Of a stretch of DNA of 52,497 bases, positions 26,609 through 45,724 are shown piece by piece. Under the pieces are notes generated by a model, which searched no databases, was not told the DNA's origin, and was given only the letters and a program-made list of their open reading frames with translations. Position numbers and translations under genes: made by a program. Positions within the stretch are counted from its first letter, which is position 1. Each line of letters opens with the position of its first letter. The stretch is from an uncultured Candidatus Saccharibacteria bacterium. GTDB taxonomy: Bacteria; Patescibacteriota; Saccharimonadia; Saccharimonadales; JBBQAJ01. The stretch spans positions 1 to 52,497 of the forward strand of contig CAZQZT010000004.1 of NCBI GenBank assembly GCA_964597925.1, given 5' to 3'.

Positions 26609-27230
26609 GCTGTTCTATGACTGGCTGTTCGGGCTGAAGCACCGTGGCACGTCCTCTTGTTTCTTTGTTTATAATATCTTCAATCCAATGATAATGCGTA
26701 CAGCCTAGCACGATCACATCTGCCCCTTGTTCACACACTGCGTCTATTCGTTCATTTATATTCTGTCTGTCTAATTGATTATCTTCTATCATTTTTGCCC
26801 AGTCACTACAGTCCGGCTCCAAAACTTCAACTCCTTGGGCATAAGTTTCTTTTAGCGATCTGTACCTTTTACTAGCTAGGGTGGTTGGCGTGGCACAAAC
26901 AGCAATTATTTTTGATTTTGTTAATTCACAGGCGGGTTTCACCATTGGCTCCGTGGCAATTAGTGGAACGTCAATAATCTGGCGTAACTCTTCTATCAGC
27001 GTAGTAGATATAGTATTACAAGCAATGACAATAACTTCGCAGCCTTCATCCACCAAAGCTTCTAGGATCGGTACTACTAGTTTCTTTAACTGCTGTGGTG
27101 TTTTTGTTCCATAAGGTATGTTTTCATGATCTACCATATACAGTACCTCTGAGTCGGGTAATGCAATTTGTATAGCCTGAGTAACCGAAAGACCACCTAC
27201 ACCTGAATCAAAGACCCCAATTTTAGTCAT
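26580..27230 (-). CDS. murI: Glutamate racemase
   Basis: FDSGVGG, PYG.K, IACNT, LGCTHY; 3' end overlaps the convergent murD. Confidence 0.93.
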   Translation of the reverse strand: MTKIGVFDSGVGGLSVTQAIQIALPDSEVLYMVDHENIPYGTKTPQQLKKLVVPILEALVDEGCEVIVIACNTISTTLIEELRQIIDVPLIATEPMVKPACELTKSKIIAVCATPTTLASKRYRSLKETYAQGVEVLEPDCSDWAKMIEDNQLDRQNINERIDAVCEQGADVIVLGCTHYHWIEDIINKETRGRATVLQPEQPVIEQLKKVLAQQT

Positions 27231-28035
27231 CTACTATTGTTTCTCTCGCGGCCCGTATGACATTATCAAAAAGCGCACACACTGTTAGAGGACCAACTCC
27301 GCCCTTCTCTGGTGTGATTGTTATATCTGGCATTTCCCGTACTTCTGCAGCCACATCACCTACCAGGCCGTTTGTGTCTGTGGCTACCCCAGCGTCTACT
27401 AACACTACCTTTGGTTTGACCATATTTTTGGTGACAAGCCCCGCTATACCCGTAGCACTTACAATCACATCTGCCTGAAGCGTCAAGTCTGCCAAGTTTG
27501 TTGTATGTGTGTCTGCTACCGAAAACTCCAAGCCAGATGCCTTCCATCGTTGCGCCAATGGTTTGCCCACCAAACGCCCATGGCCAATTATCAGCAGATT
27601 TTTATTTCTAAGGTCTATGTTGTACCCAGCCAGCAACCAATCAATTGCCAGTGGTGTAGCTGGCTCCAACACTGCATGTATACCTAGGCCATCTACGTCT
27701 TTTTCTGGTGTAACATCGTTTAAAATCTCATCTGTTTGACTAACGTCCGATAGAGGAATCTGGACTATAATTCCATGTACTTCTGGGTCTTGGTTGAGGT
27801 TTTGGATAATTTCTTTGGCTTTGCCTTGGTCTACTGAAATCACTTCGACGTCTACTAAAATATCCGTGCCATAACTCTGTTTTAACTTCATATAGCTGTC
27901 TACCACTGGGTCGGGATTAGTTCTAACTATTGTCAGTTTAGGGACAATACCATGCTCTTGGCGCAAAGCCCGCACTTGCTTGGCTTGGCGTTCTTGTATG
28001 TACTCTGCCAGTTCGGCACCATTCAGTATCTTCAC
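27223..28035 (-). CDS. folD: Methylenetetrahydrofolate dehydrogenase/cyclohydrolase
   Basis: GIIVQIP, KDVDG, G.LVGKP, GGVGPLTV; GTG start. Confidence 0.95.
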   Translation of the reverse strand: MKILNGAELAEYIQERQAKQVRALRQEHGIVPKLTIVRTNPDPVVDSYMKLKQSYGTDILVDVEVISVDQGKAKEIIQNLNQDPEVHGIIVQIPLSDVSQTDEILNDVTPEKDVDGLGIHAVLEPATPLAIDWLLAGYNIDLRNKNLLIIGHGRLVGKPLAQRWKASGLEFSVADTHTTNLADLTLQADVIVSATGIAGLVTKNMVKPKVVLVDAGVATDTNGLVGDVAAEVREMPDITITPEKGGVGPLTVCALFDNVIRAARETIVDD

Positions 28036-28070
28036 TAAACCAGTATAACAGAGGCAGATTACATCTGTTT

Positions 28071-28116
28071 AAACATATGCGGGATTGGAGGGCCACAGTA
28101 ATCGCTATCGCAACTA
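28071..28116. repeat. tRNA-Lys 3'-end junction J0 (arm, TGGAGGGCC core, 22-bp arm)
   Basis: AAACATATGCGGGAT-TGGAGGGCC-ACAGTAATCGCTATCGCAACTA. Confidence 0.75.
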
Positions 28117-28152
28117 TTTTTCAGCTAGTTCATATCAGAAGTGCTGAATGAA

Positions 28153-28587
28153 TTATTGACCGTTGTGCATCATATGCATCATATCATTATCTGAATAGTT
28201 CCAGTTCTGTTGCCATTGCTTCATTTCCGCAATCTCTTTTTGTTGAGCTGTAATTATATCCTTGCTAAGTTGTTTTATTTCGTCGTGTTTAGCACGGGTG
28301 TCAGAAAGTTTAGCCATATCAATTGCACCTTGATGGTGGACTATCATCATTTCGATAAATGCTTTGTCATAATCGTCACCGTTCAATCCTTCAAGTTGTT
28401 TGTTCATGTCGGCCATAGACATTGTACTGTGGTCAGTTGAAGCTGGCTGTACGTTGTTAGTGTCTATGCCCATTATTTTCATGATTCCGGTGTGGTTGTT
28501 ATTAACAGATTGGCCTGCAACGAATCCTGCAATAACTAATCCTGCTAACAATCCGATTACTCCGTATAACAAAGATTCTTTTTTCAT
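28153..28587 (-). CDS. DUF305 (CopM-like, Met/His-rich) exported protein
   Basis: N-terminal TM; DKAFIEMMIVHHQGAIDMAK...AQQKEIAEM. Confidence 0.9.
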   Translation of the reverse strand: MKKESLLYGVIGLLAGLVIAGFVAGQSVNNNHTGIMKIMGIDTNNVQPASTDHSTMSMADMNKQLEGLNGDDYDKAFIEMMIVHHQGAIDMAKLSDTRAKHDEIKQLSKDIITAQQKEIAEMKQWQQNWNYSDNDMMHMMHNGQ

Positions 28588-28630
28588 ATCTCTATTATAA
28601 CAAAAAACAGAGACTTTAAGTCTCTGTTTT

Positions 28631-28675
28631 AAGCATGAGCGTACTGGAGGGCCATCGTAGATGCTGTAGCAACTA
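28631..28675. repeat. tRNA-Lys 3'-end junction J1
   Basis: AAGCATGAGCGTAC-TGGAGGGCC-ATCGTAGATGCTGTAGCAACTA. Confidence 0.8.
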
Positions 28676-28689
28676 AAATAAAATTTAAA

Positions 28690-29013
28690 CTAGCGATTAT
28701 TAAGACGGGCGGCGATTGCGAATTGCATAAAGTAAGTTTCTAATGTTGGGTCAACTTTATCTGTTGTAACCGACTCTGCAAATAACTCTCTGGCATAAAG
28801 TAACTCTCTTAGGCCGGGTTTGTTTTCATTGGCCCATAATTGTGCCGTTTCATCTATCAAATCCAGGCCCCGATATAACGCAGCTTGGGATCTTTTATGC
28901 TTACCCTGGCGTTTTGCACTTAGGGCCCGACCAACTTCTGAGCCAATATTCCCCATTTGATTAAACACATCCATTTCAGCCCACGACTTAGTATCGAATA
29001 AGTGATCAGTCAT
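28690..29013 (-). CDS. Small helical hypothetical protein, partner of the DUF5674 gene
   Basis: NQMGNIGSEVGRA...RGLDLID...REL..ARE; start overlaps the DUF5674 stop (ATGACTGA). Confidence 0.75.
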   Translation of the reverse strand: MTDHLFDTKSWAEMDVFNQMGNIGSEVGRALSAKRQGKHKRSQAALYRGLDLIDETAQLWANENKPGLRELLYARELFAESVTTDKVDPTLETYFMQFAIAARLNNR

Positions 29014-29347
29014 GAACAATCCCTTGCACTAGCGCGATTATTTGTTGTTTTTTATGTGGATCTAAAACATCTTTTGATGCATTTCCTTGACTGGGTCGTA
29101 TATTGATCATGGAATCGAATTCTATAAAATCATCTGTTCCATAATCTTCTGGGTGCAGATTAATTCCCCAAAGATCATTTTGATTTGAGCCATTTTCCAT
29201 TAGATATGCTTCGCCATCTGCATGCATTCCCATATCAACAATCATGATCTTTTTAACTACATCGACGTCAGCCTTTACTAGACTGCCGTACATCTTTTTT
29301 GCCATTTCTGTCAATTCCGAAATGCTGATGGCGCTAATAACTTTCAT
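29006..29347 (-). CDS. DUF5674 family protein
   Basis: VKADVDV...MHAD.E..L...GS.Q.DLWGIN...IEFDSMINIRPSQGN.S. Confidence 0.8.
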   Translation of the reverse strand: MKVISAISISELTEMAKKMYGSLVKADVDVVKKIMIVDMGMHADGEAYLMENGSNQNDLWGINLHPEDYGTDDFIEFDSMINIRPSQGNASKDVLDPHKKQQIIALVQGIVHD

Positions 29348-29388
29348 CCGGGTATTATAACAAAAAATGATGCATTTTATCTCTATAT

Positions 29389-29463
29389 AAGCATAAGCCT
29401 ATTGGAGGGCCCCTCCTTTGCAATAGCTTCGGTGGGCAGGCATCGTAGACGTTATCGCAACTA
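29389..29463. repeat. tRNA-Lys 3'-end junction J2 (30 bp extra between core and arm)
   Basis: AAGCATAAGCCTAT-TGGAGGGCC-N30-ATCGTAGACGTTATCGCAACTA. Confidence 0.8.
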
Positions 29464-29546
29464 TATTTCAATACCCAATACCTGGTCAACAAAAAATTTT
29501 GTGCGTGTTGACTGTTTAATTTTTATTCATGATATTACAAAGACCC

Positions 29547-29583
29547 TTGACATATCTGTATACATAGCATACAATGTATACAT
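29547..29583 (+). promoter_or_regulatory. Promoter/operator of the TA pair
   Basis: TTGACA-N17-TACAAT, ATG 6 nt later; two TGTATACA palindromes overlap it. Confidence 0.8.
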
Positions 29584-29830
29584 GAGTAGAATTCAGTATA
29601 CAATTAGAAATATTCCTGCACCCGTAGATAAAGTTATTAAAAAACGAGCAAAACAGTCTGGTAAGTCATTCAATCAGACAGTTGTGGACATTTTGGCAAT
29701 GCAAACTTTTGGCTCGACAGATTTACATATAGAAGAGAGCTTTGATTGGTTATATAACAATAATACTCTCGATGACTCTTTTGATGAGGCAATAAAAGAT
29801 ATATCAAAAATAGATAAGAAGATTTGGTGA
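29582..29830 (+). CDS. Ribbon-helix-helix antitoxin (FitA/VapB-like)
   Basis: QYTIRNIP..VD..IKKRAK..GKSFNQ.VVDIL; directly upstream of a PIN gene. Confidence 0.8.
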   Translation: MSRIQYTIRNIPAPVDKVIKKRAKQSGKSFNQTVVDILAMQTFGSTDLHIEESFDWLYNNNTLDDSFDEAIKDISKIDKKIW

Positions 29831-29834
29831 TAAT

Positions 29835-30224
29835 ATGTCCTTTATTTTGGATACCAGCGCTTACTCGGCCTTCAATCGAGGTGATAAACGTTTAAGGGCG
29901 TGGTTTACACCTGACAGAGACATTATCGTACCAATCATAGTGTTAGGTGAATTACGTTCGGGCTTTGCTGTCGGTAATAGATTTGAGGAAAACGAGAAGC
30001 TTCTACAGAGATTTCTTGATAGCCCAAATGTCACGGTACAGACCATAACGGATAAAACTACAGTAATATATTCACAGATTTATCTTAAACTTCGCGCTAT
30101 AGGCAGGCCAATTGGTACAAATGATATGTGGATAGCAGCGATAGCTCTTGAATTAGATAACGAACTCCTGACTTTGGATGAAGATTTTGCGAATGTACCA
30201 GATTTAATGATAGGTAAAATATAG
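29835..30224 (+). CDS. vapC: VapC family PIN-domain toxin
   Basis: ILDTSAY, LGEL, NDMWIAAIA, LLTLDEDF. Confidence 0.9.
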   Translation: MSFILDTSAYSAFNRGDKRLRAWFTPDRDIIVPIIVLGELRSGFAVGNRFEENEKLLQRFLDSPNVTVQTITDKTTVIYSQIYLKLRAIGRPIGTNDMWIAAIALELDNELLTLDEDFANVPDLMIGKI

Positions 30225-30257
30225 AAACAATAATTTAAAGCTAAAGAATGAGTGCAT

Positions 30258-30334
30258 TGGAGGGCCAGGAGGGACTTGAACCCTCGACACCCTGCTTAAG
30301 AGGCAGGTGCTCTAACCAGCTGAGCTACTGGCCC
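30258..30334 (-). tRNA. tRNA-Lys(CUU)
   Basis: Fully paired cloverleaf; anticodon arm CCTGC-CTCTTAA-GCAGG; T-loop TTCAAGT; encoded CCA. Confidence 0.96.
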
Positions 30335-30582
30335 GGAAATATATTGATCTGAAAAGGTGCGTGTGCTTATGAGTAGTGTCTCAGCTGTTAGAGTACAGGT
30401 GCTGTTAATTGATTCTAACAGCAAGCTGCGCCAGCTAAACCACTGACCCGGAATTACCTATTCAAAACAGAGGTAAATTGTACCAGATTTACTCTCTTAG
30501 GTAAATACACCACGATTCTTATTTTATTATTGGTTATTTAGGCCTCTAATGACGACAGAAACTAATAACAGAGGGAGGTTTT

Positions 30583-31098
30583 ATGCTCTTTGCGCAAGCC
30601 GATTTATACTCGACTAATTCTTATCAAGTTGAACCCAAAGGTACATCCGGCGGTATTTGGGCCCCTTTTGTTGCTATTTGGTTTATATGGCTGATCGTTT
30701 TCATCGTTGCAATTGTGGCGCAGTGGAGGATTTTTGAGAAAGCCGGACAACCTGGCTGGAAATCATTAATTCCAATCTATAATTTCTGGACATTATGTGA
30801 AATAGTAGGGAAGCCTGGGTGGTGGTCATTGTCATTCCTGCTTGTGGTAATTCCGTTTGTAGGCTGGATTGCTCCTCTTATCGTTGGCATATTTGTCATG
30901 CTAGAACTAGGCAAAGCATTCAATAAGGACGTGACGTGGACAGTTTTTCTGCTCATAATCTTCTCACTTATTGGAATGTTAATCCTTGGCTTTGGAGATG
31001 ACAAGTTCGACAAGAGTAAGCTCTCTTCTCCTGAAATAAGCACAGCAGGTGCTGGACCAGGCGGTGGCAGTAAAAAACCGACTCCTCCGAGCAGCTAG
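30583..31098 (+). CDS. DUF5684 membrane protein
   Basis: WRIFEKAGQPGWKSLIPIYN...GKPGWW; SD GGGAGG. Confidence 0.85.
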   Translation: MLFAQADLYSTNSYQVEPKGTSGGIWAPFVAIWFIWLIVFIVAIVAQWRIFEKAGQPGWKSLIPIYNFWTLCEIVGKPGWWSLSFLLVVIPFVGWIAPLIVGIFVMLELGKAFNKDVTWTVFLLIIFSLIGMLILGFGDDKFDKSKLSSPEISTAGAGPGGGSKKPTPPSS

Positions 31099-31115
31099 TT
31101 ACAAAACGCTGTTTT

Positions 31116-31149
31116 AAACAATGCCTGGCTTCCATGTCGGGCATTGTTT
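31116..31149 (+). terminator. Hairpin/terminator after the DUF5684 gene
   Basis: AAACAATGCC / GGCATTGTTT perfect 10-bp stem. Confidence 0.6.
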
Positions 31150-31201
31150 AATGAGGCAAGCGAGTAACTTCGCCCCAGTTCTTGTATGCTACGATACAGT
31201 A

Positions 31202-31353
31202 ATGAAAATACTCAATGGCAGCGATCTTGCAGGCTTTATCAAAGGGCGTCAAGCACAACAAGTACGAGCTCTTCGTCAGGCATAAGTGTTGCGCCAAAGC
31301 TTGCTATTATACGAACCAATCCAGATCCGGTCGTAGACAGCTACATGAAGCTC
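31202..31353 (+). pseudogene. folD: Truncated, frameshifted 5' fragment of a second folD
   Basis: MKILNGSDLAGFIKGRQAQQVRALRQA* then, in another frame, VAPKLAIIRTNPDPVVDSYMKL; matches the N-terminus of folD at 28035. Confidence 0.85.
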
Positions 31354-31435
31354 ACTAGAGGCTCGCCTCATGAATCTCACGATATCCCGCTCCAACATAT
31401 TGTCACCGAGAAATCCGTTCATAATTTCTAGAGTG

Positions 31436-34323: not shown

Positions 34324-34830
34324 ATGAGCAAAATATCAGTGAATGAAGCATATCAAAAGGGCTACATCTATACACTCAGTGAACCTTCTGGTAAAAACTT
34401 CGAATCTGATTTCAAGCCACAGCTCACACCAGAACAAATGTTAAAGCTTGGGATTTTTGGCGGATTTTATTTTACCTGCATCCCGGCTGAATTCCCAGCT
34501 AGCTGGTTTGATGGGGTAGAATTTACCAAAACAGGGCACGCCGATGCTAGTTTAAATTTTTTCAAAGTAAACGCTAGTCAGCCACTGGAAGTCTGGCAGA
34601 AAAAGGGCTGGATATATTTCGAGGACCCTAAGGGTTGGTTTTTATGGTACTGCCGGTACTACCTGGGAAGAAGAATTCCTGAAGAAGATGCTCGCCAGAT
34701 AAAACGCTGGAGAGCTATAACAAGGCACATCAGCCAGATACAAAAGGTGTGTCAGCCAGGTGATTTATCTTGCAGACCTCGGCAACGCCAAGCATTACTA
34801 CACTGGGCATACGATTCACGCAAGCTATAA
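34324..34830 (+). CDS. Conserved hypothetical protein
   Basis: Trp/Arg-rich 168-aa ORF (LTP.QML.LG.FGG...DP.GWF.WYCRYY.GRR...RQI.RW...RQ.LLHWAYD); own -10 box. Confidence 0.75.
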   Translation: MSKISVNEAYQKGYIYTLSEPSGKNFESDFKPQLTPEQMLKLGIFGGFYFTCIPAEFPASWFDGVEFTKTGHADASLNFFKVNASQPLEVWQKKGWIYFEDPKGWFLWYCRYYLGRRIPEEDARQIKRWRAITRHISQIQKVCQPGDLSCRPRQRQALLHWAYDSRKL

Positions 34831-35676
34831 ATATGCCTGTATCAGAACCATAGTAATACAAAAACCGGCAAACCAATTGAGCCAAATAAAACGTCTCCAC
34901 CCCGCATTGGCAGATTCGGCTGTTTTGTCAGTTATGGCTCTGAATGGATAAATATTTACGACATATGCCAGGCATATAAACGCACACACTAGCCCTGCCC
35001 CTCCACGAGTTGCCAACAACAGCGCACTAGCCGTGTACAGCCCTCCCGCCAGCCGTGTGGTTATTCGAGCGCCTAACACGGTTCCAATCGAACTAATCTT
35101 GCCCGCTCTATCTGCGGGGATGTCTTGTACCGCACCAAAAGCATGGCTAGCCATACCCCATAAAAAGAAAGCAAAAACATATGGCAAAAAGCTTGTTTGC
35201 CAGCCCGCCAGCACTAGTCCGTACACCAGTGGTCCAACGAAATGACTGCTTGAAGTTATAGAGTCAATGAATGGTCGCTCTTTGAAGCGTAACTTTGGAA
35301 GACTGTATGCCAATACCATGAACACAACTGCACCAAGCGTAAGCTTTGCAGACAAACCACCCCACGTAAACATAACAGCGAGAACTGGGATGTTAGTGAT
35401 AAATACCCCTCGTAATATGGTCTTGTGTTGAGCTTTTGCGAGCACAGCCCCTTCTATGCCACCTTTACGTGGATTCAGTATGTCCGATTCATAATCAAAT
35501 ACATCGTTTACGCCATACATCATCAGGTTGTACGGAATTAGGAAATATATAGTGCCCACCAAAAACTGCCACGAAGCCTGGTGTGAGACTAAAATATAGC
35601 CGGCCCCAAACGGATAAGCAGTATTCAGCCATGAAATTGGCCTAGACGATAACAAAATATAACGCAAGTTTTTCAT
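34825..35676 (-). CDS. crtEb: UbiA-family lycopene elongase (C50 carotenoid)
   Basis: SSRPISWLNTAYPF, NDVFDYESD..NPRKGG.EG, AFGAVQDI..DR; last gene of the crt operon. Confidence 0.85.
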   Translation of the reverse strand: MKNLRYILLSSRPISWLNTAYPFGAGYILVSHQASWQFLVGTIYFLIPYNLMMYGVNDVFDYESDILNPRKGGIEGAVLAKAQHKTILRGVFITNIPVLAVMFTWGGLSAKLTLGAVVFMVLAYSLPKLRFKERPFIDSITSSSHFVGPLVYGLVLAGWQTSFLPYVFAFFLWGMASHAFGAVQDIPADRAGKISSIGTVLGARITTRLAGGLYTASALLLATRGGAGLVCAFICLAYVVNIYPFRAITDKTAESANAGWRRFIWLNWFAGFCITMVLIQAYL

Positions 35677-35960
35677 GGCGATTTATTGCGCTCCCAAAGC
35701 ACGGGTACTATCAAGCCAGCTACGACCGTATAAGCAAAATCTTCTAACGGCACCCTCCCTATATAGAAACCCAAAATATAACGTAAATCATAGCTAACAA
35801 GATTTAGCGCTATAATGATACTATCAAATATGGCAGTCAAAACCACTAGCACGACAATGGTTTTTATAATTGGCTTAGCAGAAAGTTCTACCCTGGACAG
35901 CTTTACCACCAACACAGTCACAACTAAAAAAATAATATTCAGCAGAGCATACCTATACAC
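35673..35960 (-). CDS. C50 carotenoid cyclase subunit (CrtYf/CrtYh-like)
   Basis: LTAIFDSII...G.VPLEDFAY; GTG start overlaps the upstream stop. Confidence 0.8.
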   Translation of the reverse strand: MYRYALLNIIFLVVTVLVVKLSRVELSAKPIIKTIVVLVVLTAIFDSIIIALNLVSYDLRYILGFYIGRVPLEDFAYTVVAGLIVPVLWERNKSP

Positions 35961-36267
35961 TTCGTTCCTCCAAAGCCCGCCATACAAGCAGGGCAGTGTA
36001 AGTAAGCAATATTAGGAAAAATAACTCCTCGAATGGAAAATCTTTCCCAACCATTAAACCTGTACTATATACTCCGCCCCCATCAGAAAAAATTCCAAGA
36101 ACGATGCCCAAAATATCCCAGAGTACAAAAACTCCAATAGCTGGAAGCAGTGTCCTGAATGTGCGTCGTCGGTCTTTAAAAAAAGCTAGTTTGTATCTAT
36201 AGTCAAATAGTCCCATGCCCAAAATCGCCAGCAAAAGTCCGGTTATATATACGAGATGTTGCCACAT
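35953..36267 (-). CDS. C50 carotenoid cyclase subunit (CrtYe/CrtYg-like)
   Basis: DYRYKLAFF...FVLWD..G...G.F...PFEELFFL. Confidence 0.8.
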   Translation of the reverse strand: MWQHLVYITGLLLAILGMGLFDYRYKLAFFKDRRRTFRTLLPAIGVFVLWDILGIVLGIFSDGGGVYSTGLMVGKDFPFEELFFLILLTYTALLVWRALEERSV

Positions 36268-37790
36268 TATCCTATTGCTCCTTTTATCGGACCTCTGGTT
36301 TTGTCACCCGTGATTTGTTTGTACACCAACTCTGCACTGATCAAACACATGGGCACGCCTATACCCGGCTGAACGTTCGCGCCTACGTAGTACAAGTTTT
36401 TGGTCTTTTTGCTTCGGGTACGAGGACGCAACATGGCGCTTTGTCGTAGTTCGTGTCCAAGACCAAGTGCCGTACCTTTCCATGAATTGTAGTCATTGTA
36501 AAAATCCGCCGGTCCATATAGTTCCTTGGTTACTATACGTTCAGCAAAGTCTATGACACCAGACTGCTCAGCTATCTGCTGGATGTACAGTTCGGCATAT
36601 TCCTCTAACTTATCGGCATGCAGATTTGGATTTGCCGGTAGCGGAACTAGTACAAATACATTTTCGTGACCTTTTGGTGCTACCGAACTATCTGTTTGGC
36701 TAGACTTACAGACGTATATAGAGGCTGGGGTTGGCCACTCTTTGGCTTCGGCTATTTTCGCAAAATTTTCTTTCCAATCCTTAACAAAGAACAAGTTGTG
36801 ATGCTTGAGCTGAGGCAATGAACCTTTAACTCCTAAATACATCAACAAAGCTGAAGGTCCAGCTTGGCGTTTTTTCCAATATGAGCTTGGATAGTCTTGA
36901 GCATGTGTGGGTAATAATTTTGTCTGCGTAAAATGCATGTCGGCATTTGAAATAACTATGTCTGATAAAATTTGTGATCCATCATTCATACGTAAACCCG
37001 TGGCTTCTTTATCTTGAATCTCTATGGCCTTGACCGCTTTGTTCAAGTAAAATTTAACACCGAGATTTTTACCTATGCGTACCATACTCTCCGTTACCGA
37101 ATACATACCACCCTGGGGATAATAAACTCCCTGGCGAAAATCCAAATAACTCATAAGATGATAGATAGCCGGCACTTTAAATGGAGAAGATCCTAGAAAT
37201 ACAGATGGGTATTCCAAAATTTGCCTAAGGCCGGGGTCTTTAAAATGTTTGCCTGTAAGTTTGTTCATGGTTTGTTGAGCGTTTTTTAACATAGCTGGGC
37301 CATGACGCAACAAACCTGGTCTCATAAAATTACGTGGTGATTCAAATGTTGTGTACAAAAAGTTTTCTAGTGCCAGTTTATAGATTTTTTCTGCACTATC
37401 TAAGTAGTTAATAAGGGCCTCACCTGCGCCAGTTTCGCGTCTTTCAAACATTTCTGCATCTGCTTTCTCGTCCCCCGTTATCACGAGCGGATTTTTTTCG
37501 CTTTCTAAAAACACTTGGTACGCGGGCTCTAGCTTAGTCAGCTTCAGCTGGGATTTGGTAGACGAACCTAGTATTTCAAAAAAATGATCGAAGACCTCTG
37601 GCATCAAATACCACGAAGGACCAGTGTCAAAACGAAAACCGTCTTTTGCTAGCATGCCCATTCGGCCACCGAGCTGGCTCCTAGCTTCGTATACACTTAC
37701 TTCGTACCCAGCTTTTGCTAACAAATTCGCAACAGCTAGGCCACCTACTCCTGCCCCAACTATTGCAACTGTTGTTTTATTTTTTGTCAC
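36267..37790 (-). CDS. crtI: Phytoene desaturase
   Basis: GAGVGG, GFRFDTGPSWYLMP, YYPQGG, YYVGA..QPG.GVP; GTG start at 37790. Confidence 0.93.
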   Translation of the reverse strand: MTKNKTTVAIVGAGVGGLAVANLLAKAGYEVSVYEARSQLGGRMGMLAKDGFRFDTGPSWYLMPEVFDHFFEILGSSTKSQLKLTKLEPAYQVFLESEKNPLVITGDEKADAEMFERRETGAGEALINYLDSAEKIYKLALENFLYTTFESPRNFMRPGLLRHGPAMLKNAQQTMNKLTGKHFKDPGLRQILEYPSVFLGSSPFKVPAIYHLMSYLDFRQGVYYPQGGMYSVTESMVRIGKNLGVKFYLNKAVKAIEIQDKEATGLRMNDGSQILSDIVISNADMHFTQTKLLPTHAQDYPSSYWKKRQAGPSALLMYLGVKGSLPQLKHHNLFFVKDWKENFAKIAEAKEWPTPASIYVCKSSQTDSSVAPKGHENVFVLVPLPANPNLHADKLEEYAELYIQQIAEQSGVIDFAERIVTKELYGPADFYNDYNSWKGTALGLGHELRQSAMLRPRTRSKKTKNLYYVGANVQPGIGVPMCLISAELVYKQITGDKTRGPIKGAIG

Positions 37791-38622
37791 TTTTTGTTCT
37801 TCGTAATTTATTTGTAACCAGGTTCTTGCCAAGCAAATTTAATTTTATTGCGTTATTTACGCGAATTCGTTTTTTTTTGATCCCAGCAACTGACGATTTA
37901 TCTAGTTTTCCTAGTAAGCGCCAGTAGTATTCGTATGCTGAAATAACAGCCGGCCTGGCACCCGATGGCAATTTATTAATTGCTGGTAATGCATCTGTAA
38001 AATCTTTCTTAATGTCTAGCACTATGATTTCCTTGTCCTTATCATCAAAATTCTCGTAACTACAGTCCGGAAAATAAAAACGATTCAACTCTTCGAAGTC
38101 AAATACTATGTCTCGTAAAAAATTTACTTTTTGAAATGCAGACCCCAAGGCACGAGCACCTGGTTCTAGGCTTTTAAATTCTGCCATAGTATTCACAAAT
38201 ACCTTCAAACACATAAGTCCGACTACCTCAGCCGAACCATCTATGTATTTATCATACAAAACTTTATCGAATTGTTGTGATTTGGTATCTAGTTTCATGC
38301 TGTAAAAAAACGGTTCTATGAGTGTTTTATCAATACTGCGCTTATTTGCTGTCAGCTGAAATGCATGAACTATCAAATTAGAACTAAAGTTTCTTTTAAT
38401 TGCATCGTATACTTCACACTCAAGCATCTCAATCTGTGAAATGGCATCTTGGCCGGAGTAAGTGTCAACAATTTCATCAGCAATGCGCACCAAGCCATAT
38501 ATGTTATATATATCACCACGTATTTCTGGTGTAAAAAGTCTAGTAGCCAACCCGAAGGAGTTTGAATAATAATTCGTAACTAATCTAGCTGTTTTTTGAG
38601 AAACAATATTATAAGTATCCAC
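37777..38622 (-). CDS. crtB: Phytoene synthase
   Basis: YS.SF.LA, VRIADEIVD, GSAEVVGLMCL, LG.AFQKVNFLRD. Confidence 0.93.
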   Translation of the reverse strand: MDTYNIVSQKTARLVTNYYSNSFGLATRLFTPEIRGDIYNIYGLVRIADEIVDTYSGQDAISQIEMLECEVYDAIKRNFSSNLIVHAFQLTANKRSIDKTLIEPFFYSMKLDTKSQQFDKVLYDKYIDGSAEVVGLMCLKVFVNTMAEFKSLEPGARALGSAFQKVNFLRDIVFDFEELNRFYFPDCSYENFDDKDKEIIVLDIKKDFTDALPAINKLPSGARPAVISAYEYYWRLLGKLDKSSVAGIKKKRIRVNNAIKLNLLGKNLVTNKLRRTKSDKK

Positions 38623-39701
38623 TAACTATTTCTCCATGCGGATTTTGAAATGAGTGCTTTGAATTGAGCTTTTGCATTTTCGCTGACATCAAGACTATCT
38701 ACGGCTATCTCTGCCTTTTTCGCATAGTTTTGAATTAATTGTTCAAGATCTGATTTTGCACCGCAAGATTCCATAATTTTCTGTGCTTTTTTTGCCATTT
38801 CTTTGTCGCAATCAGGATTTCCCACTATAGCGTTTAACTGAACTTTTTGTTCGTGGCTAGCCAGCTGGAGGGTCCTCTGCAGCAAATACGTCTGTTTTCC
38901 TTCTCTTATATCCCCCAGGACCGTTTTACCGGTTTGCTCGGGAACACCAAATACACCTAACAAATCGTCTGCCAGCTGAAAAGCAATACCAAGTGCTGTT
39001 CCGATGACATTTAAGGTACTTGTAGTTGTGTCATCTGCATCGGCAAGCATAGCCCCCAAAAGCAACGGCGTAGTACATGAATAAAATGCCGTTTTATTTT
39101 CGGCTATTTTAAGACAGTCGCTATGTTCAGAATCATAAAGTACAGCTTCAGTATCTAGTAGTTCTCCGCCAACTACGGCAAATACAGCATCTCCAATTAG
39201 TTTTATAGCCTGCAACTGCTTATCGGCCTCTATGTCACTTCTAAGGATTTGCTGGTAGGCCTCGGATAGCATCAAATCACCTGCCAGTATTGCTGCACTA
39301 TTAGAAAAGTGATCTAAATCATACTTCGTTGAGTCGAGACGGGAGTAACGTTTCCTGTACATGCCCATAATATTATCTGTGCCATGCCGCGAATAGTCTC
39401 GGTCAATAATGTCATCGTGTATGAGCATAGCTGAATGAAGTAGCTCAAGCGCCACTCCAACCGGTACTACCTTTTTATAATCCATCCCGCCCAGTGACTC
39501 ATATGCCAAAAAAAACAAATATGGTCGCATGCGTTTGCCGCTAGCCTTATGCAAGTCATGGAGTGACTGCCACAAAAACCCATAATCAGCGTGCATGTAT
39601 GCAGACCTGGTCCGCTGCAGTTTAAAATAGTTGTGTAAAAATATATTTACATCTTTACGAACTGAGTCGCTATTGTGAATTTTTTGGTCTCTCGAGTGCA
39701 T
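38622..39701 (-). CDS. crtE: Polyprenyl (GGPP) synthase
   Basis: GKRMRP, LIHDDIID, KTA, FQLADD...GK....DI.EGK. Confidence 0.88.
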   Translation of the reverse strand: MHSRDQKIHNSDSVRKDVNIFLHNYFKLQRTRSAYMHADYGFLWQSLHDLHKASGKRMRPYLFFLAYESLGGMDYKKVVPVGVALELLHSAMLIHDDIIDRDYSRHGTDNIMGMYRKRYSRLDSTKYDLDHFSNSAAILAGDLMLSEAYQQILRSDIEADKQLQAIKLIGDAVFAVVGGELLDTEAVLYDSEHSDCLKIAENKTAFYSCTTPLLLGAMLADADDTTTSTLNVIGTALGIAFQLADDLLGVFGVPEQTGKTVLGDIREGKQTYLLQRTLQLASHEQKVQLNAIVGNPDCDKEMAKKAQKIMESCGAKSDLEQLIQNYAKKAEIAVDSLDVSENAKAQFKALISKSAWRNS

Positions 39702-42811: not shown

Positions 42812-43031
42812 GCACTAAATCACAGATCTATTGTATCAGTAGCGTCATGTGATTGGAAGATGTTACCGATGCGTGTGTTTGAGTGCAGTTTGAGGGGAAG
42901 ATTAAGCACTGAAGTGGAGGCGTACTTTCGGTACGCCGTAATGATGATTGGAGGTTTTGGCCCAAAATATGCCAAACACGCGTGTTGTCCATATTGCAAT
43001 TTATACCCCAATTGATATAATATTTTGGTCT

Positions 43032-44552
43032 ATGCACACAACTAACGAAAAAATTGGACAACTTATTCACCAGATACGGCAAGAGAGAGGCCTTACTCAG
43101 GCGGCTTTTGCTCGCAAGCTTGGCACTAGCCAAAGTGCCGTCAACCGCATAGAACATGGCAATCAAAACCTAAGTCTCGAAACCCTAGGACGAATTAGCG
43201 ATGTTTTAAATAAGCCTCTTATCAGCCTTAATACTGGTGCAGTGAATTTGCGCGTTGAGGGTGGGCATGAACTAAGAGGTACTGTAGAGACAAAAACGTC
43301 AAAAAATGCTGCCGTTTGTTTACTCATGGCATCTTTATTAAACAAAGGCACGACGCGCCTAAAACATATGCCGCGCATCGAGGAAGTAAACCGTTTAGTA
43401 GAAGTGCTTTTAAGTATAGGCGTACACGTCCGCTGGCTAGCTGGTAATGATTTGGAGATTAAGCCACCTGCGGTTTTAGATTTAAGCAGAATTGACGCTG
43501 GGGCCGCTAGAAAAACCCGCAGTGTGCTAATGATGCTAGGTCCCCTAATGCACATGTTTAAAGAGTTCAAAATTCCGTACGCAGGCGGGTGTAAACTTGG
43601 AACTAGAACGGTCCAGCCTCATCTATATGCTTTAGAAGAATTGGGGGTGGATATAGTGGCGAAAACTGGCTACTACCACGTAAACGTAAAGAAAAAGCCT
43701 GCCAAACAAATTGTGCTTTATGAATCAGGTGACACTACAACTGAAAACATTTTGATGGCTGCAGCTAGGTTTGATGAAGAAATTGTAATCAAAATGGCTA
43801 GCGCTAATTATATGGTGCAGGATTTGTGCAACTTTCTTAAGAAACTGGGCGTAAAAATTGAAGGCATTGGTACGAGTACACTAACCGTTCGAGGTAAAAA
43901 TGAAATCAAGAAAAATGTAACTTATTATCCTAGCGAAGACCCCATAGAAGCAATGACATTTATCGCCGCGGCGATTACGACAAATTCCAAAATCACTGTA
44001 GCCCGTGCGCCAATAGAATTTCTTGAGCTAGAACTACTTAAGCTCAAGAAAATGAATATGAAATTCGATATAACGCCGTATTACAAAGCAGAAAATGGCT
44101 TTACTAACTTGGCGGATATCACTGTTCATAAACACGACGGGAAACTAGTGGCGTTAGAAGAAAAAATTTACGCTAGACCATTCCCAGGACTGAACATAGA
44201 TAATCTGCCTTATTTTGTGCCGATTTGTGCAGTTGCCAAAGGCCGAACACTTATTCACGACTGGGTATATGAAGAGCGCGCCCTTTACTACACAGAGTTG
44301 CGGAAACTGAATGCCAACGTGACATTGGCAGACCCACATCGCGCATATATAGATGGTCCTACTAAATTCAGTGCCGGTGATGTAGTATGCCCGCCCGCAC
44401 TTCGACCGGCGGTATTGTTACTCATAGGCATGCTGGCTGCTCCCGGCATATCAATCCTCAGAAACGTTTACTCTATAAATAGAGGTTATGAAGATTTGGC
44501 TGAACGGCTCAATAGTCTTGGTGCTCAAATCACCATCATGCACGAGCTCTAG
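43032..44552 (+). CDS. murA: XRE-HTH fused UDP-GlcNAc 1-carboxyvinyltransferase
   Basis: N-terminal IRQERGLTQ..FA..LG.SQSAV.RIE.G; MurA motifs SKNA, AGGCKLG.R, TTTENI, RGYE.L..RL..LGA. Confidence 0.9.
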   Translation: MHTTNEKIGQLIHQIRQERGLTQAAFARKLGTSQSAVNRIEHGNQNLSLETLGRISDVLNKPLISLNTGAVNLRVEGGHELRGTVETKTSKNAAVCLLMASLLNKGTTRLKHMPRIEEVNRLVEVLLSIGVHVRWLAGNDLEIKPPAVLDLSRIDAGAARKTRSVLMMLGPLMHMFKEFKIPYAGGCKLGTRTVQPHLYALEELGVDIVAKTGYYHVNVKKKPAKQIVLYESGDTTTENILMAAARFDEEIVIKMASANYMVQDLCNFLKKLGVKIEGIGTSTLTVRGKNEIKKNVTYYPSEDPIEAMTFIAAAITTNSKITVARAPIEFLELELLKLKKMNMKFDITPYYKAENGFTNLADITVHKHDGKLVALEEKIYARPFPGLNIDNLPYFVPICAVAKGRTLIHDWVYEERALYYTELRKLNANVTLADPHRAYIDGPTKFSAGDVVCPPALRPAVLLLIGMLAAPGISILRNVYSINRGYEDLAERLNSLGAQITIMHEL

Positions 44553-44613: not shown

Positions 44614-44736
44614 CTAGCGACCTAGGGTGTCTAATATATTGGATTGAAATCCAGTACGTAACCACACAATAAAGCCGAGTGCTACTAGGATAAGCGTAAC
44701 CAATATGACTGTTCGGTGCCATTCTTTTAGATTCAT
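44614..44736 (-). CDS. 40-aa single-TM small protein coupled to sortase
   Basis: MNLKEWHRTVILVTLILVALGFIVWLRTGFQSNILDTLGR*; ATGA overlap with the sortase stop; absent from the ORF track. Confidence 0.5.
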   Translation of the reverse strand: MNLKEWHRTVILVTLILVALGFIVWLRTGFQSNILDTLGR

Positions 44737-45317
44737 AATACATTCTCCAATACAGCCTGAATCACCAGGCGGTCTTTAGCTGTTAATAATGGCGTGCAGG
44801 TATACAAAGTTAATATTGATTCGTTGGTTGGGGCTTCCACGGAAGCTTTATTGGGCGAAACTTGGCTTATATTAAAAACCTTGTATTCGTAGGCTTTGCC
44901 ATGCCAGTAAACTATTATTTGATCGCCTGATTTTACTTTGTCCAAGTTATAGAAAACAGCAGCCCCAGCATAGGTGAACCTATGACCAACCAAAACGGTG
45001 TTACTGCCTTGGTCCGGTGAGCTTGTTTGTGGCCTGCGCCATATGCCCTTGTTGGCTGTATATATACTAGCTCCCTCAAATATAGGTTCCGAAAGATTCA
45101 GTGACGGTATGTATAATATTTCTCCATCTGGAATTTTGACAGTCGCAAGCGGTACGCTAGTTACGGTCGGACTAGAAATAACTGGTGCGCTGTGTCGCAC
45201 CCACCACTGTATGCTAGGGAATATCGGCAGCACCATTATGTACAAAGCCAGCAAGATTAATAGTCCTGCTAGGCAGTAGTTTACGCGTCTTAGTGTGAAT
45301 AATTTATGCATAACCAT
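44733..45317 (-). CDS. Sortase
   Basis: N-terminal TM; LVGHR, LTLYTCTP, RLVIQA (His/Cys/Arg triad); start approximate. Confidence 0.92.
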   Translation of the reverse strand: MVMHKLFTLRRVNYCLAGLLILLALYIMVLPIFPSIQWWVRHSAPVISSPTVTSVPLATVKIPDGEILYIPSLNLSEPIFEGASIYTANKGIWRRPQTSSPDQGSNTVLVGHRFTYAGAAVFYNLDKVKSGDQIIVYWHGKAYEYKVFNISQVSPNKASVEAPTNESILTLYTCTPLLTAKDRLVIQAVLENVL

Positions 45318-45339
45318 ATATATTGTATACACCTTTTCC

Positions 45340-45509
45340 AAGAACCTGATCTAATCCCCCCGTTGATAAGTAAAACCGAAGCAGCAACCATGATTTTTTC
45401 TGTCTTTTCTTATGCCAAAATATAACCGTAGGTACATTTTGAATTAAAAAAGATAGAAAAAGTGGTTGACCTTCTGTTTTAGCCGATGGGGGGATTAGGT
45501 CAGGCTCTT
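45340..45509. other. 170-bp imperfect fold-back (rod-like hairpin) element
   Basis: 22-bp terminal arms AAGAACCTGATCTAATCCCCCC / GGGGGGATTAGGTCAGGCTCTT plus three further nested complementary blocks. Confidence 0.7.
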
Positions 45510-45724
45510 AGAGTAAATAACCAGGTTGTGCACAATTGTGAGAATAATCACCCAATTAGATGTTGCATAATTGTAAATTAAGTAGCATAATGAAGGAAAA
45601 GAAAAAGAGTTTGGTGAAACGATATCGGGGGCGAAGATACATTTCCTATATGTGGTCGCTTGGGATATGTGGAGCCAATAGCGAATCCAACCATATCACT
45701 CTTATAATAATAAGGAGCATTGGT

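Follow-up and report, generated by a model that had tools for sequence, protein, structure and literature searches.

The interval downstream of the tRNA-Lys(CUU) gene in an uncultured Candidatus Saccharibacteria bacterium (GCA_964597925.1, contig CAZQZT010000004.1, positions 1 to 52,497; this whole stretch of 52,497 nucleotides is hereafter called the window) raises the question of how three small gene units came to be stacked head-to-tail behind a tRNA gene, each of them ending in a conserved 22-mer and a copy of the last nine bases of the tRNA. The preliminary description suggested that these units are sub-kilobase cassettes captured serially by a trans-acting recombinase at a roughly 45-bp arm-core-arm site, behaving like an integron but without attC or intI. 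To investigate this hypothesis, we first examined whether the repeats are real, and then compared the locus with related genomes and metagenome contigs.

The repeat architecture was confirmed. ARAGORN placed tRNA-Lys(ctt) on the minus strand, with the 3' end ...CTGGCCC-T-CCA, and Rfam found the tRNA (72 bits) and nothing else. TGGAGGGCC, the reverse complement of its last 9 nt, occurs exactly four times in the window, all within 2.2 kb and all on the plus strand, whereas 0.22 copies are expected, and 0 of 100 shuffles gave 4 or more. The three displaced copies are accompanied by the 22-mer, in which 14 of 22 positions were counted by eye as invariant. At the third junction, the 22-mer is separated from the perfect core by a 30-nt filler, which in tRNA sense starts with a degenerate core, GCCTGCCCA, and may be the stump of a deleted unit. 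The 14-15-mers preceding each core also form a repeat family (88% and 79% identity), of which the outermost is the most diverged. Pfam confirmed the gene content, and the features are listed in the table below. A junction profile built only from other genomes scored the three sites of the window at E = 1.8e-12, 5.9e-11 and 6.6e-6, and nothing else in the window scored below E = 2. Although the preliminary description gave each unit its own promoter, this rests on consensus matches only, namely TTGACA-17-TACAAT before VapB and TGTTATAAT-type extended -10 boxes before the other two.

Table. Features of the tRNA-Lys cassette array and its flanks (positions in the window).
Feature	Coordinates	Strand	Length	Remarks
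folD	27223-28035	-	270 aa	Chromosomal gene that bounds the array; Pfam THF_DHG_CYH and THF_DHG_CYH_C
Flank after the last core	28036-28085	-		Cassette-type leader (ATCCCGCATATGTTTAAAC, an imperfect hairpin, then a TG-TATACT -10 box) running into the GTG start of folD
Cassette 3 (distal)	28086-28644	-	559 bp	Leader also contains TTGTTATAAT
Core of cassette 3	28086-28094		9 nt	TGGAGGGCC on the + strand
22-mer of cassette 3	28095-28116		22 nt	
DUF305	28153-28587	-		Pfam
Leader hairpin of cassette 3	28604-28630			13-bp perfect hairpin plus T-run
Cassette 2	28645-29402	-	758 bp	
Core of cassette 2	28645-28653		9 nt	TGGAGGGCC on the + strand
22-mer of cassette 2	28654-28675		22 nt	
Partner of DUF5674	28690-29019	-	109 aa	Unassigned
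DUF5674	29006-29347	-		Pfam
Cassette 1 (next to the tRNA)	29403-30257	-	855 bp	Genes antisense to the tRNA; lowest GC of the region (0.35)
Core of cassette 1	29403-29411		9 nt	TGGAGGGCC on the + strand
Filler of cassette 1	29412-29441	-	30 nt	Between the 22-mer and the perfect core
22-mer of cassette 1	29442-29463		22 nt	Third copy of the repeat family spans 29433-29463
Promoter-like TTGACA-17-TACAAT	29547-29575			Before VapB
FitA-like RHH antitoxin	29582-29830	+		Pfam
PIN/VapC toxin	29835-30224	+		Pfam
tRNA-Lys(CUU)	30258-30334	-		Intact gene
Core within tRNA-Lys	30258-30266		9 nt	GGCCCTCCA in tRNA sense; primary attachment core, the attI analogue
DUF5684 membrane protein	30583-31098	+		Conserved syntenic neighbour upstream of tRNA-Lys, also in the related loci L014 and L051 and in metagenome loci; not part of the mobile units
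folD fragment	31203-31355	+		Decayed 5' fragment, with a stop after codon 27 and a frameshift

The same junction, AGTTGCRAYA-N7-ACGRT followed by GGCCCTCCA, was found downstream of tRNA-Lys in 6 of 28 folD-anchored Saccharimonadales species representatives whose tRNA-Lys ends in GGCCCTCCA and in 0 of 7 species with another 3' end, as well as in at least 120 metagenome contigs. The profile finds the site only downstream of tRNA-Lys, in the window and in about 180 related loci, and never at other promoters; the motif is absent from all other intergenic regions of the window and of about 0.9 Mb of folD-anchored loci. In total, 208 units were obtained, with a median length of 673 bp and up to 15 units per array, although the metagenome loci were selected by the motif and their conservation statistics are therefore biased upward. 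In all 63 loci that hold tRNA-Lys, the gene is on the same strand as the junctions and upstream of the first one. The cargo is very diverse: 283 ORFs fall into 229 clusters, which include toxin-antitoxin pairs (VapBC, Phd-YoeB), Fic, HSP20, MazG-like proteins, methyltransferases and small membrane proteins, and 79% of units are co-directional with the tRNA.

The gene order is not fixed among relatives, and arrays of 1 to at least 15 units hold almost entirely different cargo. The DUF5674-pair cassette sits at different array positions in three genomes, being bounded by the same junctions in L014 and L051, and its proteins are 75-82% identical between genomes, compared with 66% for folD and 38-66% for the neighbouring core genes as a whole. 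Two near-identical strains, L155 and L161, are 99.2-99.75% identical on both sides but carry one versus three unrelated cassettes between the tRNA core and a shared junction. In two otherwise unrelated arrays, a cassette (unit 5 of locus L102 and unit 1 of locus L169) is 99.4% identical over 634 bp, exactly core to core, with unrelated DNA on both sides; on the tRNA side only 9-10 bp are shared, which is too little for RecA-type homologous recombination. Cassette GC is 0.35-0.40, against 0.42-0.47 in the flanks. However, all 13 contigs of this species, identified by an exact folD, carry the identical three cassettes, so that mobility is shown for the family and not for this array, and no short metagenome contig had circular ends or terminal repeats that would represent a circular cassette.

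No recombinase was detected in the arrays or near them. Among window ORFs of 110 aa or more, no recombinase or transposase family was found. Clustering of the flanking ORFs and a tyrosine-recombinase pattern search were negative, and phmmer searches with XerD, IntI1 and gamma-delta resolvase found no recombinase in any of the 208 units or within 5-10 kb of an array, although three queries could miss a divergent family; with IntI1 and XerD against 3,325 ORFs from all loci (1.69 Mb) there were 0 hits at E<=1. The XerD query was validated against PDB 1a0p and also found IntI4. Just outside the window, 22 kb from the tRNA, lies an IS1595-family transposase, the ends of which do not resemble the cassette ends. 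Scans of viral contigs with the half-sites and the general junction pattern gave nothing relevant, the single hit being a chance match in a giant-virus MAG.

These results support the interpretation given in the preliminary description, with some corrections. Across the family, only the 22-mer side plus the core (about 31-35 bp) is well conserved, whereas the other arm carries 0.6 bits or less per position over 243 junctions, and the term arm-core-arm thus overstates the symmetry. The imperfect palindrome of the 22-mer shows no covariation: for its 18 nt, observed Watson-Crick pairing equals that expected and mutual information is about 0 over 227 junctions. The TTATGyTTAAAC arm resembles a XerD arm by eye, but it is weakly conserved and the 6 nt between it and the core vary, so the crossover cannot lie there, and the resemblance remains a speculation about the enzyme only.

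We therefore suggest, with fair but not full confidence, that the interval is a three-unit array of a widespread, apparently undescribed family of small mobile gene cassettes in Saccharimonadia. A cassette consists of a short leader, often with its own terminator hairpin and an extended -10 promoter, one or two small genes, usually co-directional with the tRNA, and a conserved 3' recombination site of about 31 nt. Cassettes would be inserted and lost by conservative site-specific recombination between the cassette site and either the tRNA-Lys 3' end or another cassette's site, with strand exchange inferred to take place inside the shared 9-10 bp, which keeps the tRNA intact and stacks the cassettes behind it, new ones probably entering next to the tRNA. 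The presence of only one conserved site per cassette (left arm plus core) fits a single-site circular substrate, although the circular intermediate is inferred. Considering that the enzyme is not encoded in the arrays, it would act in trans and is most likely a tyrosine recombinase, but it has not been identified and the central actor is hypothetical.

Other explanations are less likely but deserve consideration. Full-size, integrase-bearing islands or prophages might have integrated one after another at tRNA-Lys and then been reduced by internal deletions to stumps that keep their two att ends and a gene or two. tRNA 3' ends are standard integrase targets and leave displaced fragments, some units reach 2-4 kb, and cores become somewhat more degenerate with distance from the tRNA, although this trend is weak and rests on small numbers. 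However, no integrase or fragment of one was detected in any of the 208 units, the size distribution is tight around 0.4-1 kb, the units are intact promoter-to-gene modules with a conserved 3' site, one of them has moved as an exact core-to-core unit, and no viral contig carries the site, which makes this history improbable. It is equally doubtful that the units are MITE-like and mobilised in trans by a highly target-specific DDE transposase, the 9-mer being a target-site duplication. A 9-bp direct repeat flanking every unit is formally what a duplication at one fixed target would give, the unit ends in the window show a weak inverted similarity (AT.CG...ATGCT, by eye), and the IS1595-family transposase lies nearby, but only one end is conserved whereas transposases need both, no transposase recurs near arrays, and variant cores such as GGACCTCCA sit inside otherwise regular arrays, which a fresh duplication of the tRNA end would not produce.

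It is also conceivable, though unlikely, that there is no dedicated enzyme, that the junctions are conserved terminator or regulatory modules, and that shuffling is ordinary homologous recombination between these roughly 30-50-bp repeats and the tRNA after natural transformation. Saccharibacteria are naturally competent (PMC10187176), the arms next to the core are homogeneous within a genome and offer 30-40 bp of homology, and 40% of leaders carry hairpin plus T-run terminators. Part of the strain-level turnover could indeed come from homologous recombination in the flanking tRNA and shared cassettes. This does not explain, however, why every unit ends with the exact tRNA 3' terminus, and it disagrees with the 9-10 bp shared at the tRNA-proximal junction, the absence of the motif from other intergenic regions, the lack of structural covariation in the 22-mer and the lack of an Rfam match. 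Although the source is a metagenome-assembled sequence, chance or chimeric assembly is refuted by the shuffles, by the identical organisation in 13 independently assembled contigs from several runs and by the related metagenome loci.

The claim of the preliminary description that no system like it is known is too strong as a concept, although we found no description of this particular system in the literature that could be searched. Like sedentary chromosomal integrons and CALINs (clusters of attC sites lacking an integrase), the arrays consist of head-to-tail sub-kb cassettes with one recombination site at the 3' end, one primary insertion site at the head, strong orientation bias, very diverse and mostly unknown cargo with frequent toxin-antitoxin cassettes, and array-specific homogeneity of the cassette sites, as with VCRs; as in CALINs, no integrase was found next to the array. 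They are not integrons, since attC and intI are absent: the primary site is the 3' end of a tRNA gene rather than an attI next to intI, and the cassette site is about 31 nt rather than a 57-141-bp imperfect palindrome folding as a hairpin, its GTTGCGA and GCAACTA not fitting GTTRRRY or RYYYAAC by eye. In addition, many cassettes bring their own terminator and promoter, and the host phylum is Saccharibacteria (CPR).

As in tRNA-integrated islands of the Islander type, an intact tRNA gene and a displaced 3' fragment bound the element, but the units encode no tyrosine integrase of their own that we could detect. CIMEs, as in Streptococcus thermophilus, appear comparable in being integrase-less units bounded by att sites, accreting at the same tRNA 3' end and presumably depending on an enzyme supplied in trans. 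The present units are 0.1-4 kb rather than several to many kb, the identity block is only 9-10 bp, arrays reach at least 15 units, and no integrase-bearing parent element was found in the genome loci, metagenome loci or viral contigs examined, whole genomes not being searchable. In the tycheposon-shaped genomic islands of Prochlorococcus (bioRxiv 10.1101/2020.12.28.424599), a streamlined genome likewise has its flexible genes concentrated next to particular tRNA genes, with new arrivals pushing older ones outward and partial tRNA copies scattered through the island, but tycheposons carry their own tyrosine recombinase, often with replication modules, and run to several kb or more, whereas here each unit is a one- or two-gene cassette with a conserved 22-mer. 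Acinetobacter pdif modules and Xer-dependent IMEX elements are probably also analogues, as small integrase-less modules, often toxin-antitoxin or single accessory genes, presumably moved by a housekeeping recombinase encoded elsewhere; pdif sites, however, seem to be 28-bp XerC/XerD dyads in alternating orientation on plasmids, while the present sites are chromosomal direct repeats with no dif-like dyad, and the invariant block is the tRNA terminus itself.

It is about as likely as not that the family represents an independently evolved, integron-analogous gene-capture platform native to Saccharibacteria, with the tRNA-Lys 3' terminus as the universal docking site, the roughly 31-nt cassette-borne site as the attC counterpart, and a distant chromosomally encoded recombinase, either a housekeeping Xer-type enzyme or a new family, shuffling hundreds of different sub-kb cassettes among these ultra-small, naturally competent episymbionts. 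Saccharibacteria and other CPR bacteria have tiny genomes, few recognisable mobile elements and an obligate episymbiotic lifestyle, and how they gain and lose accessory genes is poorly understood. On this reading, the platform would be phylum-wide, previously undescribed and a main route by which the reduced genomes acquire accessory genes, including toxin-antitoxin pairs, Fic, stress, envelope and small unknown proteins. The flexible gene pool would have a defined address that can be mined from metagenomes with one short profile, a second, non-homologous example of the integron design would bear on why that design evolves, and the unidentified recombinase, with its compact site ending in a tRNA terminus, could serve as a genetic tool for CPR bacteria, which have only recently become tractable.

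It is worth mentioning that TAAGCATAAG is not enriched in the window as a general motif (7 matches against 5.9 expected). An inverted pseudo-junction at 31370-31400, seen by eye as a possible inversion site, was not supported by the profile. The decayed folD fragment lies at the position that folD occupies in relatives and marks an inversion of about 28036-31430.

ARAGORN predicts a tRNA-Lys(ctt) gene whose last nine bases are GGCCC-T-CCA. The reverse complement of these bases, TGGAGGGCC, occurs exactly four times in the 52,497-base window, always on one strand, whereas 0.22 occurrences are expected, and none of 100 shuffles reached four. The three displaced copies each carry the 22-mer reported in the preliminary description, although at the third copy the 22-mer lies 30 nt from the perfect core; the filler in between begins, in tRNA sense, with a degenerate second core, GCCTGCCCA, and may be the stump of a deleted unit. 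The 14-15-mers on the other side of each core are related to one another, with identities of 88% and 79%. The core-to-core spacings are 855, 758, and 559 bp, and the units hold, in order, a FitA-like RHH plus PIN (VapBC) pair, DUF5674 plus a 109-aa partner, and DUF305. Read in tRNA sense, every unit runs from a leader through the gene or genes to a TAGTTGCGATAGCATCTACGAT-like 22-mer and then GGCCCTCCA. The positions of these and the other features are listed in the table.

Positions of the features discussed in the text; handles beginning with L denote loci outside the window.
Sequence	Position	Strand	Feature
Window	30258..30334	-	tRNA-Lys(ctt)
Window	28086		TGGAGGGCC, displaced copy
Window	28645		TGGAGGGCC, displaced copy
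Window	29403		TGGAGGGCC, displaced copy
Window	30258		TGGAGGGCC, copy at the tRNA-Lys
Window	29412-29441		Filler between 22-mer and perfect core of the VapBC cassette
Window	31203-31355	+	Decayed 5' fragment of folD
Window	27886-27950 / 31286-31350		Inverted repeat associated with the folD fragment
Window	about 28036-31430		Inverted segment
Window	34825-39701		Carotenoid-type biosynthesis cluster
Window	42948-44552		ORF with HTH_3 and EPSP-synthase-fold domains
Window	44733-50743		Sortase gene and adjacent 1,727-aa protein
L046	8881-9217		Tandem "empty" units
L063	226-610		Tandem "empty" units
L021	9657-9859		Tandem "empty" units
L155	3586-4593		Cassette sites with nearly uniform arm
L161	111-3007		Cassette sites with nearly uniform arm
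L008	7240-7999		Unit with displaced tRNA-Lys fragment
L186	11806-12690 (equivalent to 52545-53429, just past the window end)		IS1595-family DDE transposase

Consensus scans gave a strong promoter before the VapB-like gene (TTGACA-17-TACAAT), a perfect 13-bp hairpin with a T-run followed by TTGTTATAAT before DUF305, and a TG-extended -10 box before folD. The GC content of the cassettes is 0.35-0.40, compared with 0.42-0.47 in the flanks. Rfam recognized only the tRNA, and no recombinase or transposase family was found among the ORFs of 110 aa or more in the window. The 13 contigs from several sequencing runs that carry the identical FolD all have the same three cassettes. The array is therefore not an assembly artefact, but this population gives no evidence of movement.

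To investigate relatives, we scanned a genome collection with FolD and obtained 58 Saccharimonadales loci at 43-70% identity; the source species itself was not among the representatives. tRNA-Lys lies near folD in most of these loci, in either orientation. Displaced copies of the 9-mer, always co-directional with and 3' of the tRNA, occur in several of them, and the 22-mer is recognizably conserved there. A profile of the junction then found 6 displaced junctions in locus L014, 7 in L051, 2 each in L021 and L010, 1 in L030, and weak ones in L028, with none elsewhere in these loci or in the window. This corresponds to 6 of the 28 species whose tRNA-Lys ends in GGCCCTCCA and 0 of the 7 with another terminus. 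The units in these arrays hold Phd-YoeB, Fic, HSP20, a MazG-like protein, DUF1905, an HTH regulator with a membrane protein, a TehB-like methyltransferase, and several small membrane or unknown proteins. The DUF5674-pair cassette of the window reappears, bounded by the same junctions, as unit 4 of 6 in L014 and as the last unit in L051. Its proteins are 75-82% identical to those of the window, whereas FolD is 66% identical and the DUF5684 neighbor 38-62%.

The position of folD in the window differs from that in relatives, in which the usual order is murI-folD-(DUF2752)-DUF5684 <-> tRNA-Lys -> cassettes ... DHFR-FolC. In the window, the site where folD lies in relatives is occupied by a decayed 5' fragment of the gene, with a stop after codon 27, a frameshift, and 72% nucleotide identity to the intact gene. 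The segment comprising the array, the tRNA, DUF5684, and the fragment is therefore inverted in this genome, and the intact folD now follows the last core behind a cassette-type leader.

The loci of the wider survey hold 242 profile hits. Over all loci there are 208 units with a median of 673 bp and a range of 110-4131 bp, most of them being 400-1000 bp. In all 63 loci that contain a tRNA-Lys gene, it is on the same strand and upstream of the first junction, with no exception. Both the CUU and UUU isoacceptors are used, and both end in GGCCCTCCA. The largest array seen is on one 20-kb contig (Ga0097691_1001156), split between loci L181 and L174, which carries at least 15 junctions in about 13 kb; its head is only a 3' remnant of tRNA-Lys, 20 nt after a tRNA-Trp gene. 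The 283 cargo ORFs fall into 229 clusters, and the longest ORF is co-directional with the tRNA in 162 units and opposite in 42. The largest units carry ABC transporters, oxidoreductases, and regulators, but never a recombinase. Of 151 non-redundant sense units, 61 have a hairpin plus T-run in the leader, and 27 have a TGnTAnAwT box, compared with 2 in ORF-interior controls. It is worth noting that loci L046, L063, and L021 contain tandem 137-194-bp units with only a terminator hairpin and 17-21 nt of the tRNA-Lys 3' end (T-stem plus acceptor); these are "empty" units with a longer tRNA identity block, and those of L063 also contain a GTTGCGAC box.

Across 243 unique displaced junctions, the consensus is a..ttAGTTGCaAtAgcgtc.ACGaT GGCCCTCCA a. 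Information is high on the 22-mer side and in the core but low (0.6 bits or less) on the other side. The preliminary description had proposed an arm-core-arm site, and this result modifies that picture, because each cassette has essentially one conserved site, at its 3' end. Core variants concentrate at positions 2-3 (GGACCTCCA 12 times and GGTCCTCCA 6 times), while CCTCCA is nearly constant, which suggests, but does not prove, that exchange happens in the CCTCCA part. The 18-nt imperfect palindrome seen in the window is not maintained by compensatory changes, since observed pairing equals expected and mutual information is about 0. A folded attC-like or RNA structure is therefore not supported, and a double-stranded protein-binding site is the simpler reading. 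The arms next to the core are nearly uniform within a genome, as attC sites are in sedentary chromosomal integrons. In L155 and L161, for example, all cassette sites within one genome share almost the same arm (GCAACAGCATGCACGAT), which differs from the arm in other genomes, suggesting co-evolution with a genome-specific enzyme, or homogenization.

The argument for mobility rests on two comparisons. L155 and L161, which come from different samples of one project series, are 99.2% identical through tRNA-Lys and 99.75% identical over 2.4 kb from a shared cassette onward. However, between the tRNA core and the junction before that cassette, L155 has one unit (325 bp), whereas L161 has three unrelated ones (618, 497, and 1081 bp). 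In addition, one cassette found in two loci is 99.4% identical over 634 bp, exactly from core to core, although it sits directly after the tRNA in L169 and after at least four other cassettes in L102, and the DNA on both sides is unrelated. At the tRNA side, the only shared sequence is the 9-10-bp core, which is too short for ordinary homologous recombination. The variable part is tRNA-proximal and the shared part distal, and perfect cores fall from 84% at position 1 to 72% at positions 2-3 and lower beyond, albeit on small numbers; both points fit entry next to the tRNA. In locus L008, the displaced tRNA-Lys fragment (cctcct-GGCCCTCCA) matches the T-stem of the tRNA-Lys of other species rather than that of its own genome (ccaggt), which hints that the unit came from another lineage.

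No enzyme was found for this process. Clustering of the flanking ORFs gave only syntenic housekeeping genes (folD, murD, and DUF5684), and phmmer searches with XerD, IntI1, and gamma-delta resolvase found nothing at E<=1 in 3,325 ORFs from 1.69 Mb. Extension beyond the ends of the window, as in L186, which continues past the window end, revealed an IS1595-family transposase (zinc ribbon plus DDE_Tnp_IS1595) 22 kb from the tRNA, followed further on by a Replic_Relax gene. Although this is the nearest mobility gene to the array, its ends do not resemble the cassette ends. No viral contig carries the site. A trans-acting recombinase is therefore an inference. We favor a tyrosine recombinase because of the conservative, tRNA-preserving exchange within a short identity block, but this class assignment is about as likely to be wrong as right.

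Other explanations of the arrays fit less well. Decay of integrase-bearing islands is contradicted by the size distribution, the intact modular units, and the exact core-to-core transfer. A MITE-like transposon with a 9-bp target duplication is formally compatible with the direct repeats but is disfavored because only one end is conserved. Pure homologous recombination between repeated terminator-like modules explains neither the tRNA terminus at every unit end nor the 9-bp junction at the tRNA, and chance and artefact are excluded. The repeats noted in the preliminary description are confirmed, and its interpretation, that small cassettes were captured serially at the tRNA-Lys end by a trans-acting recombinase in an integron-like manner, is supported, although the recombinase itself remains inferred. 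We hold the site-specific cassette explanation with fairly good, but not full, confidence.

Functionally, the system works like an integron, with a primary site, cassettes carrying one 3' site each, orientation bias, toxin-antitoxin and unknown cargo, and array-specific site homogeneity. However, it lacks both defining features of an integron, since there is no intI and no attC. It shares the tRNA-terminus logic of integrative islands and the integrase-less state typical of CIMEs, but the units are an order of magnitude smaller and no parent element is seen. Tycheposon islands are the nearest ecological analogue, although those elements carry their own recombinases. pdif modules are analogous in being small and enzyme-less but typically use dif-like dyads. 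Site-specific cassette arrays and tRNA-targeted integrative elements are known, and it is about as likely as not that the present arrays are an independent, undescribed gene-capture system with its own enzyme. No description of cassette arrays at tRNA-Lys in Saccharibacteria or CPR was found in the literature searched, the coverage of which was incomplete, so that prior description cannot be excluded.

The window also contains other genes outside the array. A carotenoid-type biosynthesis cluster, which is unexpected in a reduced Saccharibacteria genome, comprises a UbiA prenyltransferase, two lycopene-cyclase halves, phytoene desaturase, phytoene/squalene synthase, and polyprenyl synthetase. 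One ORF joins an N-terminal HTH_3 domain to an EPSP-synthase-fold (MurA-like) enzyme, and the independent gene call in L186 makes it a 527-aa product. The protein encoded next to the sortase gene has about 10 SpaA-type prealbumin-fold repeats and is probably a pilus or adhesin of the episymbiont.
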